IMG/VR virus record: IMGVR_UViG_3300047172_000080
Span: 1-64,000 of that record
Length of the DNA stretch: 64,000 nucleotides
From: a virus
Reading direction: 5' to 3' (one strand)
Both the position numbers and the translations under genes were made by a program. The notes beneath the pieces are model-generated. The model saw only the letters and a list, made by a program, of their open reading frames with translations, searched no databases and was not told the origin of the DNA. Positions 5,266 through 61,086 of the stretch are shown in pieces; position 1 is the stretch's first letter, and the number at the start of each line of letters is the position of its first letter.

Positions 5266-6371
5266 GTTATATATGCTTTCTTTAAGTTATTTAAGATGTC
5301 TTTCGTATTGTTGTTAATTAAACTTTCTAATAATTCAATTCCTGTATCTCTAATTTCTTCTGTAAATGCCCCATTTTCTTTCAATACTAATTCCAATACT
5401 TCTGTTTGATTAGCTTCATTGGATATTTCTGACCTAATACTTATATTAGAATTTAATGTTTTATCTGTTGGGAGAATTGTCGTTCTTACAATAGCAAGGT
5501 CATATAAGAAACTAAAATCCAACAAGTTCTTATATAAGTGCTTATGATATCGTATTATATAAACAGGTTTTCTACCTTTCTTTTTAAAGCTATTCTTTAA
5601 AGCTTCTATCTCATTTTCTTTATTAAATAAAGGTAACGATTCTTCTGTAAGGCTAAATTCAAAGAAATCTCTTATTAATTCATAAGGCAATAATTCAACA
5701 TTTTCTCCATTATAATAAACATAATGTTTTTCTCGTATCTCATCTAAGGCTGTAACTCCTGTAGAGCCACAATAACCAAAGAATATATCACGAGGTTTAA
5801 TAATCTTATGAATACCAGAATGAATATCCCCAAAAACACAAGCCTTTAAATTAGGACATAACTTTATAACTTCATCCCAATCTACCGTAACTGTTTTCTT
5901 TTCTTCGCAAAAACCAAATAAACTTGGAATTTGAGTATGTAGAAAGATTGCTTCTACTGTATCTTTTTTATTAAAAATTTCAGCTAGAAACTGCTCTTTT
6001 ACAAAATCAGGATTATCATTATAAGCTATTCCTATAAACGTAGGTTCAATATTAATTTCTTTAAAATTAGCTATCTGCTCCCATGTAATATTATTAATTG
6101 CTTTACTGTGATCTCCACAGATAGCTAATGGAGTAATACCATTCTCGGATAATTTATCGTTTTGATTCTTAACAAAATCAATAGTTTCCTGATTTGGTTT
6201 ATTAGTCTCGAATAAATCACCTACGGAAATAAAATATTTAACCTTCAATTCAATAGCTTTATCAACAGCATTTGAATAATAATCAAATAAATCCTGTCTT
6301 AGTTCTGGTAAATTAAATAAAGCATCTTCTAAATGAGAATCACTGATTGCTAGAAATGTGTTATTTGACAT
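5262..6371 (-). CDS. SbcD/Mre11/gp47-like metallophosphoesterase nuclease
   Basis: motifs SDSH, VGDLFE, GDH, LHT, GDIH; near the SbcC-like gene. Confidence 0.88.
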   Translation of the reverse strand: MSNNTFLAISDSHLEDALFNLPELRQDLFDYYSNAVDKAIELKVKYFISVGDLFETNKPNQETIDFVKNQNDKLSENGITPLAICGDHSKAINNITWEQIANFKEINIEPTFIGIAYNDNPDFVKEQFLAEIFNKKDTVEAIFLHTQIPSLFGFCEEKKTVTVDWDEVIKLCPNLKACVFGDIHSGIHKIIKPRDIFFGYCGSTGVTALDEIREKHYVYYNGENVELLPYELIRDFFEFSLTEESLPLFNKENEIEALKNSFKKKGRKPVYIIRYHKHLYKNLLDFSFLYDLAIVRTTILPTDKTLNSNISIRSEISNEANQTEVLELVLKENGAFTEEIRDTGIELLESLINNNTKDILNNLKKAYIT

Positions 6372-6664
6372 TTAGTTCTATCTGTAATAAGTCTATTAAT
6401 CTCTTCCTTTTCAAGGTTTAGGACTTCTTCTCTACTATCCGCATAAAACGTCTTACCGTTTTCAAAAATAGTAGCTACCCATTGTTGCTTTTCATTATCG
6501 AACTCCACTGAAGAAGCTCTTTCAACAGTGGATGTTCCAAGCTTAAGTCTTAGTTTATCCAAGACATCACAATGAAGACCTTTTACTTTACCTTGAGGAC
6601 TGATATAGAACTTATTAGATTTCCTGATGAAGGTCTTGTTCTCTGTCATCTTCGTAAGCCTCAT
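6350..6664 (-). CDS. conserved hypothetical protein of the Ycf46/DUF1257/DUF2997 module
   Basis: ISPQG...LG...ERASSVEFD...W...F.SREE.L..E pattern recalled from this neighbourhood. Confidence 0.55.
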   Translation of the reverse strand: MRLTKMTENKTFIRKSNKFYISPQGKVKGLHCDVLDKLRLKLGTSTVERASSVEFDNEKQQWVATIFENGKTFYADSREEVLNLEKEEINRLITDRTKCQITHF

Positions 6665-6866
6665 TATAACGGCGTGAACTTTCGTTAGCTTGTCCTAATT
6701 TCTTTTCTATTTTGCGAGTAACTTCATCGCAAATAGAACCATATGATGTACCACCATCAATAGTGATTCCACCGCGAGTATTAATTAAAATTTTGTAACT
6801 TGCTCTCGCCATATTATTCCTTGTTTTTAGGGAGAATTGCGTATGCTGTTTGTGCTCCAAATACAT
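6615..6866 (-). CDS. DUF2997-like protein
   Basis: G.ITID...YGSICDEVTRKIEKKLG pattern; likely start at ATG 6812. Confidence 0.6.
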   Translation of the reverse strand: MYLEHKQHTQFSLKTRNNMARASYKILINTRGGITIDGGTSYGSICDEVTRKIEKKLGQANESSRRYNEAYEDDREQDLHQEI

Positions 6867-7008
6867 CTATCCAAGGTGTTTCTGTACCTTGATGAGTTGC
6901 ATTTCTAATATTTTCCTTAACAGGTACACGCATTACTGTTGCACCGTATTCATCGTTTACATAAATAACATTATTTATGATATCGATATGGTCTACTTTT
7001 ATAATCAT
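6814..7008 (-). CDS. hypothetical protein
   Basis: ORF in packed operon. Confidence 0.55.
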   Translation of the reverse strand: MIIKVDHIDIINNVIYVNDEYGATVMRVPVKENIRNATHQGTETPWIDVFGAQTAYAILPKNKE

Positions 7009-7229
7009 ATATAAGTATAACTAAAATCTTTATTGCTTAATGAAGATGAATCAAATTCTATTTTTGCCTCATGACCTTTAAGTGCCTGAGTATCATAAAT
7101 ATAAACTAATGTAGCTGTACCTACTAAACCTTTTATTTTTATATCCTTAACTCTTAACTCAGTCACTGGTGGGTCGTCTAAGTTATAAAAATAGTTATAT
7201 AGCCATTCCGAGATAGCTTTCTCATCCAT
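7005..7229 (-). CDS. hypothetical protein
   Basis: ORF in packed operon. Confidence 0.55.
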   Translation of the reverse strand: MDEKAISEWLYNYFYNLDDPPVTELRVKDIKIKGLVGTATLVYIYDTQALKGHEAKIEFDSSSLSNKDFSYTYI

Positions 7230-7250
7230 AAAATTAAACGATTTTAGAAT

Positions 7251-7640
7251 TTAACCTTGAGCGTATACTTCAAGTTCTATTGAACCATCTTCTAGAACAT
7301 TAGTATCATACTCTTCATCTTCTTCTTCTAGATGCTCATCAACAATATTTTTACTATATTGTTGTTTGAGCAGACCTAATTCAGCACCTAATTGTTGGGC
7401 AATAGAGGGATCATAAAAATCACCAAAGATTTTATATTGATCACCAATATGTTTGATACCTAGATCAAATTTTCCATTAGGATTAAACGCTACGTGGTCA
7501 TATTCTACATCACGTAATTCGTCATAGGTATAAGTACGAATCTTACCTGAAGATTTAAAAATCCATCCGAAAGATTCAAATGCTTTCTTTAATAGATCTA
7601 CATTATAAAACTGACTAACAATTTCAACTGTGTGGCTCAT
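7251..7640 (-). CDS. DUF1257 (Ycf35-like) protein
   Basis: MSH start, L.KA...G, DLG, L.QQY, C-terminal EDGSIEL. Confidence 0.75.
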   Translation of the reverse strand: MSHTVEIVSQFYNVDLLKKAFESFGWIFKSSGKIRTYTYDELRDVEYDHVAFNPNGKFDLGIKHIGDQYKIFGDFYDPSIAQQLGAELGLLKQQYSKNIVDEHLEEEDEEYDTNVLEDGSIELEVYAQG

Positions 7641-7644
7641 TTTT

Positions 7645-7935
7645 TTAATTGGTTATTTTAATTTTTGTCTGATCTTTTGCGGTTATGATTTCAATATAAT
7701 CAATATCTGGATAATAGCTAGTGAAATAATTTTGAACAATGTCCAATATATCACTCTTAGGATATTCTTTAAACTCTTCTTTTCCAAATATTTTCATCTT
7801 AACTGTATTATTTACAATACTGACAAAATCTCCTGGAATAACCTCGCATAGAGGCACTTCCATAAGAAGATTGCTCATATTATCATAAATCATCAACATG
7901 TCAAACGTGCTAGGGTATTCGATATCAACACTCAT
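7645..7935 (-). CDS. hypothetical protein
   Basis: ORF in packed operon. Confidence 0.55.
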   Translation of the reverse strand: MSVDIEYPSTFDMLMIYDNMSNLLMEVPLCEVIPGDFVSIVNNTVKMKIFGKEEFKEYPKSDILDIVQNYFTSYYPDIDYIEIITAKDQTKIKITN

Positions 7936-8201
7936 TATGATTTAAATGTTATTGTCCAACTCTCATCAACAATTCCAATAAATTTACATTTTTTTAAATA
8001 AGTAGTATTTACATCGTCTAAAATAGCCATAGTATTGTCCTCGATATAAATAGCTTTATTTATGTCTAAAACTATTAACCTATCTGAGATAATTTCTTTT
8101 TCTATAGGTCTATAAATTCCTACTTTTTTGAGAGCTTCTTTATAAGTTATACTTGGTACGTCTGTTTTACAGTTTTCATTAATTACTTCAATAGTTAACA
8201 T
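7935..8201 (-). CDS. hypothetical protein (probable paralog of next gene)
   Basis: shares GIY/GVY, RLIVLD/RLIILD, KF and DE..TIT with 8195..8488. Confidence 0.6.
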   Translation of the reverse strand: MLTIEVINENCKTDVPSITYKEALKKVGIYRPIEKEIISDRLIVLDINKAIYIEDNTMAILDDVNTTYLKKCKFIGIVDESWTITFKS

Positions 8202-8488
8202 GGTTTCTCCATAAGTGTTATAGTTAACCTTTCATCAGCCTCTCTAAATTTCCAACTTTCCCAAATATTTTTATTTGATTTAATTAATTCACTATCAGCA
8301 CCTTCTATTATAAGATGTAATAAAGTACCAATTTTGTCCAAAATAATTAATCTTTGATTTTTATAACTTAGAAAATCTCCATTATAACTAATTAAATAAA
8401 CACCTGCTCCACGTTTAGGTTTAGTAATGTCGTCAATAGTAAGATTAGCCTCATTTTTACATGCTAATATCTTTGCAGTTACAATCAT
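8195..8488 (-). CDS. hypothetical protein (probable paralog of previous gene)
   Basis: shares GVY, RLIILD, KF and DERLTIT with 7935..8201. Confidence 0.6.
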   Translation of the reverse strand: MIVTAKILACKNEANLTIDDITKPKRGAGVYLISYNGDFLSYKNQRLIILDKIGTLLHLIIEGADSELIKSNKNIWESWKFREADERLTITLMEKPC

Positions 8489-10916: not shown

Positions 10917-11236
10917 CAGTTTGTTATCGTATAGGCTTTTTATCCTATACTTCTATACCTTGTTTTTTGGTATAGCTCAGCATATCTTTTCACCTTAAAT
11001 AAATGAAGGTGTCGTGGCCTCTTGGAGGAATTATATTTTTTCATCCTCTATGCGTTGCCCCTGTCTATATAGAATAATCTATAATAACTTCAGGTCTGAT
11101 TCTCATTTCAGAGTTCCAGTTTTTTTTTCCACGATTTTACTCTTATTTGTTTCCAAATAAGGTGGCAAAATATTTAGTTTATAACAATCTAAATACCTGC
11201 TTACTTTTCTATCTAAAATAAAGTAAACAGTATATT
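10917..11236 (-). ncRNA. group I self-splicing intron (IA-like, 320 nt, no ORF)
   Basis: exon 1 ends in U (11237), intron ends in G (10917); removal restores GIPGTG|KT in frame; P7 GCAUA(11053-11049)/UAUGC(10984-10980) within AAGAUAUGCUG; P3 UCGUGG/CCACGA; IGS UUUUGCCA; P2 GAAA tetraloop; P8 and P9 hairpins. Confidence 0.92.
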
Positions 11237-19211: not shown

Positions 19212-20510
19212 ATGTCTACCAATTTATCGAATTTTAACAGTAAAGTCAATCTAGCAAAAGTGGTTAAACAGTTTCCTGAATACAATGACTGGTTACTTCA
19301 AGAAGTTAAACCTTATGGTGAATTTGTAAGTAACGCTGATTTTAGTTCGGTTTGTAATATCTTTGATATTTGGATAGATAAAGATAAAAATCAATTATTA
19401 TCATCAGAAATCGTGTTTGAGGATATTACAACTAAATATCCACATTTATTAAAAGATCCTGTTATTTTTAACAATTATAAGCAAAAAACTATTGGTGAAG
19501 CTGAGCGAATGGAAAAGCTTTGGAGAAGTGTAGTTGAACATAGCCAAACTGAATTAAACTCAAAACTGTACCCTATTAATGAAAGTGGAGGTAAAATCAG
19601 TTTAGGTAAGTACTTTACTTACAGTGGTTATCCTGGAGTAGTAGAAAATAAATTCGGGCATATATCTGAAAATACTAGAAACCTATTTAATACCATGCAG
19701 AAATCATGGTTAAAGCTTCATGGTTTTAGTAAACCTATTATTGTACCTTACTATTATACTCCTAAACATATTTCTTATATTGAAGTATTTGATGCCTTGG
19801 ATGAATCAACGTGGGAAAATAGACGAATACTATATAGAAATGAGTATGCAGGATTTGCTGGTACAAGAGGGCATATTTTACCGGACTTTAAAGCCTTAAT
19901 GAATAGGCAAGGATGTTTATGGAATTACACTTTAGACTACTGGAATAAGACAGTTGTAACCATAGATGAAGATTGTCCTATTTGGGTACTTTTACATATT
20001 TATAAAACAGCAAAGCTTACAAAGTTTGCAATTGATCCGCTGGATATAATTAAAGATAAAAATCTAGGTAGTTTAGTAGAACCTTATTTAAAAGATCTAT
20101 CGAAAGAACAAGTTAGAGTTTTACAAGAGAAACTTGAATATACCGATTTATTAGATAAATGGAAAAACATTAAAAGTACCAGTTACGCAGTAGGTGACAT
20201 TACGTACTTTAAACGCCCAGAAGGTTACTTCTATATTTATAAAGGCAAAGAATTTCAACTGACTAATTTTAGTATTACTTTAGTTGATCGAATAAAAAAA
20301 GATGATAAGCCTTTTTATATATTAGATATAATTCAAGGCGATAAAACAATTACATTTGAAATTCCTCAAACTAAATTTAATTCCAGGTTAGGACTTATTA
20401 ATCATTTAAGAGAATTATTTTATGATTGTGATTTAGAGCCTCCAAAAATTTATCAACCTAGTGGAGAGCATAAATTAATGAACTTCATCTTTGATTATTT
20501 TGATAGCTAA
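19212..20510 (+). CDS. hypothetical protein (possibly replication-associated)
   Basis: 432-aa ORF; C-terminal GYFY...QLTNFSI resembles primase/helicase-associated domains only weakly. Confidence 0.6.
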   Translation: MSTNLSNFNSKVNLAKVVKQFPEYNDWLLQEVKPYGEFVSNADFSSVCNIFDIWIDKDKNQLLSSEIVFEDITTKYPHLLKDPVIFNNYKQKTIGEAERMEKLWRSVVEHSQTELNSKLYPINESGGKISLGKYFTYSGYPGVVENKFGHISENTRNLFNTMQKSWLKLHGFSKPIIVPYYYTPKHISYIEVFDALDESTWENRRILYRNEYAGFAGTRGHILPDFKALMNRQGCLWNYTLDYWNKTVVTIDEDCPIWVLLHIYKTAKLTKFAIDPLDIIKDKNLGSLVEPYLKDLSKEQVRVLQEKLEYTDLLDKWKNIKSTSYAVGDITYFKRPEGYFYIYKGKEFQLTNFSITLVDRIKKDDKPFYILDIIQGDKTITFEIPQTKFNSRLGLINHLRELFYDCDLEPPKIYQPSGEHKLMNFIFDYFDS

Positions 20511-20565
20511 ACGAAAGAGGAGTTGGGGCTACTGCTCCTTGCAATAAAATTAATACCTAAGGAAG

Positions 20566-20590
20566 TGGATAGGAGTGACCCTCCTATCCA
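20566..20590 (-). terminator. hairpin, probable terminator
   Basis: 10-bp stem TGGATAGGAG/CTCCTATCCA just after the stop at 20599, between convergent genes. Confidence 0.5.
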
Positions 20591-20598
20591 AGAAACCC

Positions 20599-20784
20599 TT
20601 ACTTCCCCTTCCGTGCTTCCAACTCTAAAGATCTTCTTCTTGCCGAATTATGCCAAAATCTTCTTGTTTCTGGTGAAGCATGTTCTTAACCTTCACCTTC
20701 TTTAAGTAATGCTATAATTTGTTCATTACTTTCCGCTGCTAAGATCCTCTGACGTAGGCCAATCTTCGTTGGTGTTGTCTTCAT
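20599..20784 (-). pseudogene. small ORF with one in-frame TAA
   Basis: MKTTPTKIGLRQRILAAESNEQIIALLKEGEG*EHASPETRRFWHNSARRRSLELEARKGK*; internal TAA at 20686-20688. Confidence 0.5.
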
Positions 20785-20885
20785 ATGGATTTAGGGGTTT
20801 ACACTTTCTTGTTATATGGGGTTACTATCACTTTTAACTGTCTGTCTTCTTTATGTGTGTGAGAGGGCAGATTAGTTAAATTGTC

Positions 20886-22398
20886 AAAAAAAAAGCGTTT
20901 TTTATCCAGTATATAGGTTTGATATCCCCCCTACATACTGGACTTTCTCTTGTGAGAGACATGTAGAAAGAGTACACTTCACAAAGTCGTGTAACTTATA
21001 CTTCCTACCATGACTAATCGATGTGCATTAGCCATTTTCAGAGGGAACGTGCGTCATCACCGCATAACCTCTTATTGTTTGAATCTCCGTAGATTCCGCT
21101 CTATGCCTATTACGCTATTTATACTCGCATAGACGAGTTGGAAGAGTAGGTGCTTGCTACTATTGTTGTGATTTTCACAAACACCTACTCACTCCCGCAA
21201 TCAACTAACTGGCAAATAAAACCGAGAAAAAAATAAATGTTATTGGTTACATTGGTTTCAAACTACCTCCTGGAGTCAGGATGTTATGTTAAGCATCCTT
21301 AAATGGGGAAAAATGCAACGTGCTGTATCTTGGGGATACAACACGCTTAGTAGTATAGACCTGCATTGTCAGTCGTTTAGACGGCCAACCGCACGATCTT
21401 GGAACTTCTTCCATTTCTAGAAATTATTATTTATTCGCCCTTGCATGTGAGGAGAGTTTACTTAACTTCTCACATGCAAGGGTTTTCAGGGTTTCCAATT
21501 TCCCTAGCTTATTTTCTACTGCCCATAGAGATAACAAGCAAATTCATATGGGCGCTTCACGACTACTTGGTACTTTAATATTCAACCGTGAATATTGAAT
21601 ATAAAGGTTTTTGATGTGGAGATCTCTAACTCCAGGAAAAATCAACGCATTAGGAGAGCATCGAGTTTCTGTAAACTCTGTACTCAAAACTGAATTACTT
21701 TTTCAAGGTAGTCCTTCCTATTAGGACAATATATATATATATATAATTACTTACTGCTTGAAAAGCTAGACAATTCCCCCGCTAATTCAGTATTTATGTG
21801 GCTCTATAAGATTTACTTTAATTCAGTAAAGCAGCCGCTTATAGCATAAACATGTTTTTAGGTTCATGTCGTAAGTGAAGAGAATTTACCCCTCCTATCA
21901 GGCAATGATAAAGTTCTAAATGCTGCTGGTCCAGGTAACCCTTGGATTACTGCCGTAATTGCCAAACTCGTGTCCTACCACGGCGATGCGTCTAGATCAG
22001 CTATAATACACCATCAAGAAAACAGAAGTTCTCCATCTATTGATATACTATATTTGCCATGCCGATCAAAATTATAGATTGAAGTCCACTTGTTCACACA
22101 ACGCATCGCCTAAGCTCAAGCTATAGAAAAGCTCTTTTCGTAACTATTACTAGAATACGATTCGCCCAACAGCATTCATGGCATCGGTTCAACAAGTGGA
22201 CTTCAATCTACATAATTTATATAAGGGAAATCTTTTCTGACATCTACTTGATGTATGTTTGAATGTGGTTGTGTGAAAATCTCTCAATTTGTGGAGCACA
22301 TTCAGCTTTAAAAGAACGAGTATTTGACCCTACATCTAGGTACATTTTAGCACAAGTAGATGCCAGAAAAGTGAAACAGAAACTAACAGCTTCCATTA
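20886..22398 (-). ncRNA. candidate large (~1.5 kb) structured non-coding RNA of unknown class
   Basis: no convincing ORF; many stems up to 20 bp; long-range complementarities; at least 7 stems with G-U wobbles on the minus strand; phage promoter at 22405-22445; hairpin plus U-run near 20886-20942. Confidence 0.7.
21729..21745. repeat. (AT)8 microsatellite
   Basis: ATATATATATATATATA. Confidence 0.9.
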
Positions 22399-22404
22399 CT
22401 TATT

Positions 22405-22445
22405 ATTATACCAAATATATACTGTTTATTCGGGGAGGGGAGGGG
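22405..22445 (-). promoter_or_regulatory. phage promoter CCCC-N~24-TGGTATAAT, copy 1
   Basis: minus strand CCCCTCCCCTCCCC...TGGTATAATAA; motif occurs 5 times in the window. Confidence 0.75.
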
Positions 22446-23153
22446 TTAATACCCATTATACCCCCCATAAGCACAATTATCTTGTCCATTATTGCCTTGG
22501 ACAGTATTAAAGGGGCGGGGGTATGAATTAGGAACATTACTGCGCTTATTAGCTGCCCCTGTTTCAATAGAATCGGGATTAGGACTAAAAGCAGCGTATT
22601 CAATATTAAAATATGACTTACCGAGAATTGAAGTTCTAGGTTTAATGCTAATAGCTTGATTTACCAAGCCTACAGCCCACACATCTAACTCATAAGTACC
22701 TTCTAACAAGGTTCCTGTTACTGAATTAGGAATAAAAATGACATAATGGTTACAATCTTTAGAATCTGTGTAGATACCGTTGTTTAATATACCTGCCCAA
22801 GTATAGGTGATAAGATATTGAGAAGCTTTAACAATTACATTCAATGTGTACTTGGTTAAATCTATAGGCTTTCCATCTAAATATAGAAATGCGTCATAAA
22901 TAACATCTTCTCCCTGATACCATACAGCAGAAGCATGATCTGAGCCAATAAAGTTAGAGCCTGGAATTCCTAAAGTATTTAAATCAGATTGTGGAATATT
23001 AGGATTATTAACTCTAGGAATAAGTTTAGAAGTTATTGGTATACAATTATCAAGTGGAATAGAACCTGAAGTAGGAGGGCAAGGATTACTACCTAGTTCA
23101 AAAGTAGTAGGTTGTGCAATGTCTACTTCATAGTAAGGGGGAGTTACAGGCAT
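22446..23153 (-). CDS. putative virion structural protein
   Basis: YQGED...DGKPIDLT...GTY.LDV resembles BppU-like beta-sandwich; at the end of the tail module. Confidence 0.55.
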   Translation of the reverse strand: MPVTPPYYEVDIAQPTTFELGSNPCPPTSGSIPLDNCIPITSKLIPRVNNPNIPQSDLNTLGIPGSNFIGSDHASAVWYQGEDVIYDAFLYLDGKPIDLTKYTLNVIVKASQYLITYTWAGILNNGIYTDSKDCNHYVIFIPNSVTGTLLEGTYELDVWAVGLVNQAISIKPRTSILGKSYFNIEYAAFSPNPDSIETGAANKRSNVPNSYPRPFNTVQGNNGQDNCAYGGYNGY

Positions 23154-23561: not shown

Positions 23562-24047
23562 TTAGGCACCAGCCGTAGCTTCAACCGGAGGCTGTTCCTG
23601 GCGGTTGGGGCGATTCATCGGAACACGGAGTTCCTTGCCCAACGGAGCGTGCGGGGTTTCGTTGGTTTTACTGGGAATCACCGAATCCTCGTGGACCTGC
23701 TGAATTTGTCCACGGAGTTCCTGATTCTTTTCAGCCAACTCTTCCGCCGCAGAGGCGATCTTCCCGGCTTCCCGTTTGATCACTTCTTCCGAACGCTGAA
23801 TTTGAACCTCAGGTTGGACCGTCATGGACGGCTTCCTGAAGTTGCTCAGCACGGCGGCGAACTTCTGTTTCATGGTGAACATGGCCTGTTTCGCGGTATG
23901 AACCACGACAGCCCCATAGTATTGGAACCCAAGGGTTCCCGCGACACCGATTCCAACACATCCTGCCGCCGCAAGACAAGCAACCGGCTTGCTCATGACG
24001 ACATTGCGATTGGTTCCGATCTCAACGTTGATTGTAGGAGTGTCCAT
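23562..24047 (-). CDS. GC-rich membrane-anchored coiled-coil protein
   Basis: hydrophobic CLAAAGCVGIGVAGTLG segment then coiled coil; GC far above flanks. Confidence 0.7.
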   Translation of the reverse strand: MDTPTINVEIGTNRNVVMSKPVACLAAAGCVGIGVAGTLGFQYYGAVVVHTAKQAMFTMKQKFAAVLSNFRKPSMTVQPEVQIQRSEEVIKREAGKIASAAEELAEKNQELRGQIQQVHEDSVIPSKTNETPHAPLGKELRVPMNRPNRQEQPPVEATAGA

Positions 24048-24122: not shown

Positions 24123-24170
24123 ATTATACCAGTTATAACCCTTAATTTTGTACGGGGGTAGGGGAGGGGG
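24123..24170 (-). promoter_or_regulatory. phage promoter, copy 2
   Basis: CCCCCTCCCCTACCCCC...TGGTATAATAA. Confidence 0.75.
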
Positions 24171-24542: not shown

Positions 24543-24583
24543 ATTATACCAATTTATAGGTATATTTAACCCAAGGGGAGGGG
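24543..24583 (-). promoter_or_regulatory. phage promoter, copy 3
   Basis: CCCCTCCCC...TGGTATAATAA. Confidence 0.75.
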
Positions 24584-57856: not shown

Positions 57857-57892
57857 ATTATACCAATTAATTACCCCATTTTAGGGGAGGGG
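57857..57892 (-). promoter_or_regulatory. phage promoter, copy 4
   Basis: CCCCTCCCC...TGGTATAATAA. Confidence 0.75.
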
Positions 57893-61049: not shown

Positions 61050-61086
61050 ATTATACCAGTTTAACAACTAACTTTTTAATAGGGGG
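61050..61086 (-). promoter_or_regulatory. phage promoter, copy 5
   Basis: CCCCC...TGGTATAATA with the same spacing as the other copies. Confidence 0.65.

Follow-up and report, generated by a model that had tools for sequence, protein, structure and literature searches.

The closest described systems to the locus examined here are the giant RNAs GOLLD and ROOL, the multiply pseudoknotted tmRNA (RF00023), and the phage cassettes that carry a Pistol ribozyme (RF02679). GOLLD (RF02032) is a giant RNA of phages and prophages that forms a 14-mer cage (PMC12286853). Both GOLLD and ROOL assemble by kissing loops, which enclose a disordered linker (PMC12286853).

The window, which is the whole 64,000-nt stretch that was analysed, comes from a viral contig of 79 kb with an estimated completeness of 39%. 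Like GOLLD, the RNA of the window is large, ORF-free, and highly structured, lies in a phage RNA-gene island, and contains large unstructured internal stretches; the GOLLD of a syntenic relative, L119, sits at the same position between promoter and Pistol. Unlike the L119 RNA, which scores 141 bits, the window RNA has no match to the conserved 3' domain of GOLLD (E up to 10). It shares with tmRNA the genomic slot that tmRNA occupies in approximately 20 syntenic relatives and the same kind of promoter, whereas a tRNA-like domain or tag frame is absent, as judged by Rfam, ARAGORN, and a profile of the relatives' tmRNAs. The resemblance to phage Pistol cassettes consists of an identical Pistol core of approximately 40 nt and a hairpin+GUURCAUUU element. 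However, the cassettes of five relatives contain approximately 100-350 nt of RNA before the Pistol, whereas the window has approximately 1 kb of unrelated structured RNA, including a module that was proposed to be a pairing hub. As in the H-type pseudoknots and kissing loops of ROOL and GOLLD, hairpin-loop segments of 7-11 nt in the window are complementary to unpaired segments of neighbouring elements, but the ROOL and GOLLD pairings are backed by covariation and structures, whereas those of the window rest on one sequence, with P ~0.01.

The minus-strand RNA and its Pistol ribozyme

The RNA lies in a gap between convergent genes (20511-22445) that contains no ORF of at least 100 aa. Each of the six frames has at least seven copies of every stop codon, and with a single stop type read through, no more than 151 codons stay open; on this basis, a hidden coding region under reassigned stops was rejected. 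Decayed copies of the small ORFs of the relatives were also considered and rejected, as tblastn gave no signal. A 50-codon ATG ORF on the minus strand (22244-22396) begins 1-3 nt past the predicted transcription start and spans both arms of M1, the first hairpin module described below. It would be leaderless, with no ribosome-binding site, and is probably not coding.

The stretch is headed by a phage promoter motif with an extended -10, CCCC-N-TGGTATAAT, at 22405-22440 on the minus strand. Five minus-strand copies with an identical 36-nt span, CCCC-N23-TGGTATAAT, are located at 22405-22440, 24123-24158, 24543-24578, 57857-57892, and 61050-61085, and the motif is found seven times in total, compared with 1.45 expected matches. 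In the relatives L036 and L014, it likewise stands at the head of the RNA slot. The C-run of the promoter doubles, in relatives, as the 3' arm of a G/C hairpin followed by a T-run, an arrangement that places a terminator right against the following promoter. From the position of the motif, the RNA is expected to start at approximately 22397-22399. We take the minus-strand, promoter-driven, structured RNA to be real, with a predicted length of approximately 1 kb or 1.26 kb, depending on its end.

Two elements precede the ribozyme on the minus strand. The first is a 17-bp hairpin followed by an AAUAAU-rich stretch (21438-21482), which, from an alignment with the promoters of the relatives, may represent the end of a first RNA unit together with a weak internal start. 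The second, a 13-bp hairpin plus GUUGCAUUU (21308-21347), is common to five relatives. The hairpin+GUURCAUUU element (alignment A4) is present in the window and in L036, L046, L072, L086, and L092, where it lies approximately 20-250 nt upstream of the Pistol (approximately 190 nt in the window); its stem has three different sequences in the six phages, all of which still pair, and it may be a terminator, a processing site, or a structural element.

The Pistol self-cleaving ribozyme itself (RF02679) is located at 21063-21138 on the minus strand, with a score of 39.6 bits compared with the gathering score of 34.5 and with the full model (positions 1-68) matched. The core shared over approximately 40 nt is identical to those of the same five syntenic relatives, and the predicted scissile G-U is at 21068/21067. 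The Pistol probably cuts the transcript at 21068/21067 and parts the large RNA from a 180-nt 3' RNA. Unlike the Pistols of the relatives, that of the window carries an unusual insertion of 11-12 nt between P3 and the GGU, ahead of the cleavage site, and most of the 66 other phage Pistols compared have no such insertion; the ribozyme may be inactive.

Downstream of the Pistol, the RNA of approximately 180 nt (20886-21062, minus strand) has at its 3' end a 13-bp hairpin (20905-20942) followed by a T9 run (20886-20894), which together form a putative terminator. The approximately 375 nt past the T9 run (20511-20885) are ORF-poor and contain a 9-bp hairpin, GGATAGGAG/CTCCTATCC, at approximately 20566-20590. 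On the other side of the RNA, a 161-aa gene (23562-24047) has a G+C content of approximately 55% compared with approximately 32% for the phage and may be a recent acquisition. An Rfam scan of the whole window at gathering level reported no intron, including at 10917-11236, for which an ORF-less group I intron had been proposed.

Modules of the RNA and complementarities of the M2 interior

In the predicted fold, a small 5' hairpin is followed in the 5' to 3' direction by the hairpins M1, M2, and M3 and then by larger domains. The minus strand of 21900-22398 folds with -151.5 kcal/mol (z -5.0) compared with -116.6 kcal/mol (z -2.05) for the plus strand, and the minus strand of 21310-21900 has a z of -4.4. 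Because no homologue was found, the helices upstream of 21350 are predicted from a single sequence.

M1 (22232-22371, minus strand) is a 140-nt hairpin with a closing stem of 19+2 bp and a 102-nt interior, and M2 (22073-22212, minus strand) is a 140-nt hairpin with a closing stem of 22 bp. The preliminary description had reported the M2 stem as 20 bp, and 22075-22094 and 22191-22210 indeed pair at 20 of 20 positions; on the minus strand, the stem grows to 22 bp by a U-A and a G.U pair. M3 (21995-22067, minus strand; z -3.97) is a 73-nt hairpin that contains five G.U pairs and therefore forms on the minus strand only. G.U wobbles, which would be A.C on the plus strand, are found in M1 (one in the closing stem), M2, M3, and one of the distal pairings discussed below. 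The next predicted domain starts at 21919-21991 (minus strand).

Although M1 and M2 have the same length, they are not alike in sequence. No repeat family joins them, a covariance model of M2 gives no match to M1, and the idea that they are paralogues was rejected. The two modules as a whole are far more stable than their shuffles (z -6.08 for M1 and -6.61 for M2), whereas their interiors are not (z -0.42 for M1 and +0.24 for M2, for which 117 of 200 shuffles fold as well). The 96-nt interior of M2 (22095-22190), which the preliminary description had called a hub loop, is thus an open interior without a fold of its own.

The four distant complements that had been assigned to consecutive segments of this interior are all present. 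In pairing a, CACACAAC at 22095-22102 is the exact reverse complement of 22268-22275; in pairing b, ACGCATCGCC at 22101-22110 is that of 21982-21991; and in pairing d, CATGGCA at 22177-22183 is that of 22055-22061. Pairing c consists of 11 bp between CCAACAGCATT at 22166-22176 and 21919-21929, in which a single A.C on the plus strand becomes a G.U on the minus strand. Partner site a lies in a 13-nt one-sided internal loop of M1, in agreement with its earlier placement in a loop, and partner site d in an 8-nt one-sided internal loop of M3. Sites b and c belong to the start of the next domain and are partly taken up by weak alternative helices. The competing GCCGUG/UACGGC hairpin that had been claimed for site b does appear in the fold, and site b may either join this hairpin or pair with 21644-21650. 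The probabilities of being unpaired in the nested fold are 0.95, 0.59, 0.60, and 0.65 for partner sites a, b, c, and d, respectively, and 0.17-0.47 for the loop segments themselves.

Topologically, each of the four pairings crosses the 22-bp stem. Among the pairings themselves, b and c are nested, d crosses the two of them, and a crosses the other three; the loop segments 22095-22102 and 22101-22110 have 2 nt in common. The duplex energies of the four pairings are -9.7, -18.1, -15.6, and -9.5 kcal/mol, and the weak local fold of the loop that the distal pairings would replace has approximately -21 to -25 kcal/mol. A nested alternative in which b and c are forced reaches -147.8 kcal/mol compared with -158.4 kcal/mol for the free fold, a cost of 10.6 kcal/mol. 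By these model energies, distal pairing is affordable, and the lack of an own fold in the interior (z +0.24) leaves room for it.

The preliminary description had judged four such matches unlikely by chance. Shuffled sequences rarely match the observed set (P ~0.005-0.05), so that this control, which had been named as a possible refutation, does not refute the hub reading; the loop exceeds chance only modestly. In dinucleotide shuffles of the loop and its flanks, the six observed segments of at least 7 nt compare with 1.9 expected (P 0.008), the summed length has a P of 0.004, and a 10-mer match is seen in 3% of the shuffles (P 0.03). When the true flanks are held fixed, the shuffled control gives P 0.007 by stacking energy and 0.047 by count. 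These values are to be read with the facts that shuffles understate the chance level in real AT-rich sequence and that the loop segments were selected post hoc. When all 96-nt windows of the real 64-kb sequence are taken as the control, 11% contain at least six such segments, 6% have an equal summed length, and 1.1% equal the summed stacking energy of the loop; among GC-matched windows, 7-8% reach the count and 1.2-1.6% reach the energy. The loop thus ranks at approximately the 99th percentile of the real-sequence controls by energy and the 90th by count, and the excess has a P of ~0.005-0.08 across all controls used.

The matches are also not independent because the motif GAUGC/GCAUC recurs: of its four copies, one is in the M1 stem, two are in the loop, and one is at 21982-21991. 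The interior of the neighbouring module, M1, exhibits no enrichment of distal matches (P 0.6-0.8). A search for guide-like targets of the loop, which had been suggested as a check, found none in the window, where a single AT-rich 13-mer is near the chance level. Overall, the loop is moderately unusual, and the energy-weighted enrichment (P ~0.01) is not nothing.

Explanations for the complementarities

The four complementarities are most likely a mixture of chance and the recurring GAUGC/GCAUC motif. Candidate tertiary contacts that would pack M1-M4 together are at most the 10-bp match between 22101-22110 and 21982-21991 and the contacts to the internal loops 22268-22275 and 22055-22061. On balance, we lean towards an account in which the proposed hub is the open M2 interior of an orphan phage RNA and the pairings reflect mostly chance and motif recurrence. 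The minus strand of a large, uncultured phage would give rise to a non-coding RNA that starts at approximately 22398 at the phage promoter and runs approximately 1 kb to the strong hairpin at 21438-21482 or approximately 1.26 kb to the Pistol, whose cut would separate the large RNA from the 180-nt 3' RNA. The 96-nt open interior would belong to the second of two equal-sized 140-nt modules at the 5' end of this RNA. The RNA-gene slot of the lineage would be filled here by an orphan large RNA in place of tmRNA or GOLLD. Of this account, the sequence itself shows that the RNA is non-coding, its strand, the promoter motif, the Pistol, the synteny, and the modular architecture, whereas the ends of the transcript, the cleavage, and any tertiary pairing are inferences.

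The strongest rival, which we nevertheless consider unlikely, is a real intramolecular hub, in which the open M2 interior pairs simultaneously with loops in M1 and in M3 and with both sites in the domain that follows, and pseudoknot or kissing contacts make the 5' 480 nt globular. Such a hub is consistent with the enrichment (P 0.004-0.008 against shuffles and ~0.01 by energy among real windows), with the M2 interior lacking a fold of its own, and with the position of partners a and d in one-sided internal loops that are largely unpaired (P 0.95 and 0.65). Duplexes of -9.5 to -18.1 kcal/mol would replace a local fold of approximately -21 to -25 kcal/mol, and one of the pairings requires a G.U that is present only on the RNA strand. 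However, every one of the pairings has to cross the 22-bp stem, d has to cross b and c, and the loop segments of a and b share 2 nt. By count, 7-11% of real windows equal the loop, the repeated motif inflates this count, and nothing comparable is found in the M1 interior. A wider form of the proposal, in which a new class of giant phage RNA, first represented here, replaces GOLLD or tmRNA in a conserved RNA slot and the M2 interior acts as a genuine hub of pairing, within one molecule or between several, that organises a compact or multimeric particle, appears distinctly improbable. The hub pairings are a single-sequence hypothesis and would be of importance only if probing or homologues confirm them.

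We give little credence to the explanation that the stretch is a row of separately processed small RNAs, with the stems of 19-22 bp acting as RNase III-type processing stems that free units of approximately 100-140 nt, and with the cross-complementarities being incidental. M1 and M2 are both exactly 140 nt long, have perfect stems of approximately two turns and unstructured interiors, and relatives carry module-like leaders, all of which would suit such processing; on the other hand, a single promoter motif heads the stretch, and M1 and M2 are dissimilar in sequence.

It is very unlikely that the same segments instead join separate RNA molecules into a multimer in the manner of the kissing loops of the GOLLD and ROOL cages. 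The comparison is suggested by L119, which has a GOLLD at the same promoter-to-Pistol position, by the joining of GOLLD and ROOL via kissing loops around a disordered linker (PMC12286853), and by the open interiors of 96 and 102 nt, which resemble such linkers. However, the window RNA matches neither GOLLD, ROOL, nor any other Rfam family at E up to 10, sequence alone cannot tell pairing in trans from pairing in cis, and the statistical weakness is the same as that of the intramolecular hub.

Highly improbable is a conformational switch, in which a nested alternative built on b and c would be incompatible with the 22-bp stem. The forced fold with b and c (-147.8 kcal/mol compared with -158.4 kcal/mol for the free fold) and the three alternative partners of site b speak for such a switch, but the fold with the stem closed is more stable by 10.6 kcal/mol, the 22-bp stem, which is transcribed ahead of b and c, should form first, and there is neither a ligand nor a regulated gene downstream.

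The least probable explanation, that the two adjacent perfect inverted repeats (19-22 bp with spacers of 96-102 bp) act as DNA, as a miniature mobile element, a protein-binding site, or a replication origin, is countered by the strand-asymmetric folding with many G.U-dependent helices, the promoter upstream and ribozyme downstream on the same strand, and the lack of a second copy in the 79-kb record, 871 kb of loci, or ten relative genomes.

The RNA-gene slot in related phages

Searches by DNA and protein found no cultured relatives among the GenBank phages. The 235-aa protein encoded upstream of the RNA has homologues (30-38% identity) at 7 metagenome loci and 23 viral loci that share the gene order of the window, and the closest protein relative, P0002 (49% identity), is on a contig of 3,996 nt. 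The genomes of the relatives are 165-204 kb in size, and one is complete.

In nearly all syntenic loci, the slot is occupied by the tmRNA, in some relatives with tRNAs behind it or with a tRNA-Met that a group I intron interrupts. The five relatives with the shared Pistol core combine the promoter type of the window with a short RNA and the Pistol, and a tmRNA follows the Pistol in L036 and L072, the two of the five loci whose examined DNA reaches that far. In L119 (IMGVR_UViG_3300043803_002473; locus 6048-8241), a GOLLD at 6741-7145 (141.2 bits, E 1.6e-38, just under the Rfam gathering score) is followed by a Pistol at 7155-7222, which starts 9 nt past the GOLLD end. Beyond this Pistol, L119 has approximately 1 kb of further ORF-free, hairpin-rich sequence with no Rfam match and no tmRNA. 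A search for the pattern of a GOLLD end plus a Pistol returned only the contig of L119 itself.

The slot thus contains tmRNA, tRNAs, a group I intron, GOLLD, or Pistol in different relatives, which indicates that it is an exchangeable RNA-gene site. These comparisons suggest that large phages hold a dedicated, promoter-driven slot for big structured RNAs, the content of which is swapped in this lineage among tmRNA, GOLLD, and orphan RNAs, with the Pistol often a fixed neighbour. The Pistol would thereby gain a concrete and likely job, the cutting of RNA operons, and the RNA of approximately 1 kb, which is of no known family, is an added candidate for in vitro work.

Known identities for the window RNA were rejected as follows. 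A tmRNA in disguise was considered, but ARAGORN found none, RF00023 has no match at E up to 10 anywhere in the 79-kb record, nhmmer with the tmRNAs of the relatives gave only E 5.8 on an unrelated stretch, and relaxed ARAGORN settings produced only overlapping noise. The conserved 3' domain of GOLLD (RF02032, gathering score 150 bits) is unmatched at E up to 10 both in 20400-22700 and in the whole 79-kb record, and at the same threshold ROOL and the other Rfam families are without a match to the window RNA.

Searches for homologues gave a similar picture. The covariance model of M2 found only itself over 871 kb of syntenic and Pistol-bearing loci. In 66 Pistol loci and 30 syntenic loci searched with nhmmer, similarity was confined to the Pistol core and a single hairpin. 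Ten whole genomes of relatives searched by BLAST had nothing beyond short chance matches, and the window RNA and L119 have no sequence similarity. Neither the 971-nt RNA nor the loop module has a homologue in GenBank phages; loop probes of 16, 18, and 20 nt gave chance matches without extended similarity in viral and genome collections; and the 140-bp units have no second copy in the 79-kb record.

The slots of the relatives hold further RNA features. At L014:5150-5420, and likewise in L009 and L107, a tRNA with the anticodon CAU directly follows the phage tmRNA; a group I intron (RF00028, 68.7 bits) interrupts the anticodon loop of this tRNA, which ARAGORN missed. The T-loop of the L036 tmRNA (GGGGTTCGATT; L036:2990-3160) appears interrupted, with the expected 3' acceptor strand absent next to it, and may contain an intron, while the tmRNA is still full-length by Rfam (73 bits). 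The abiF RNA motif, of which the window has none, is present with 37-47 bits a few kb beyond the RNA slot at L004:8476-8513, L097:9157-9193, and L072:11366-11401.
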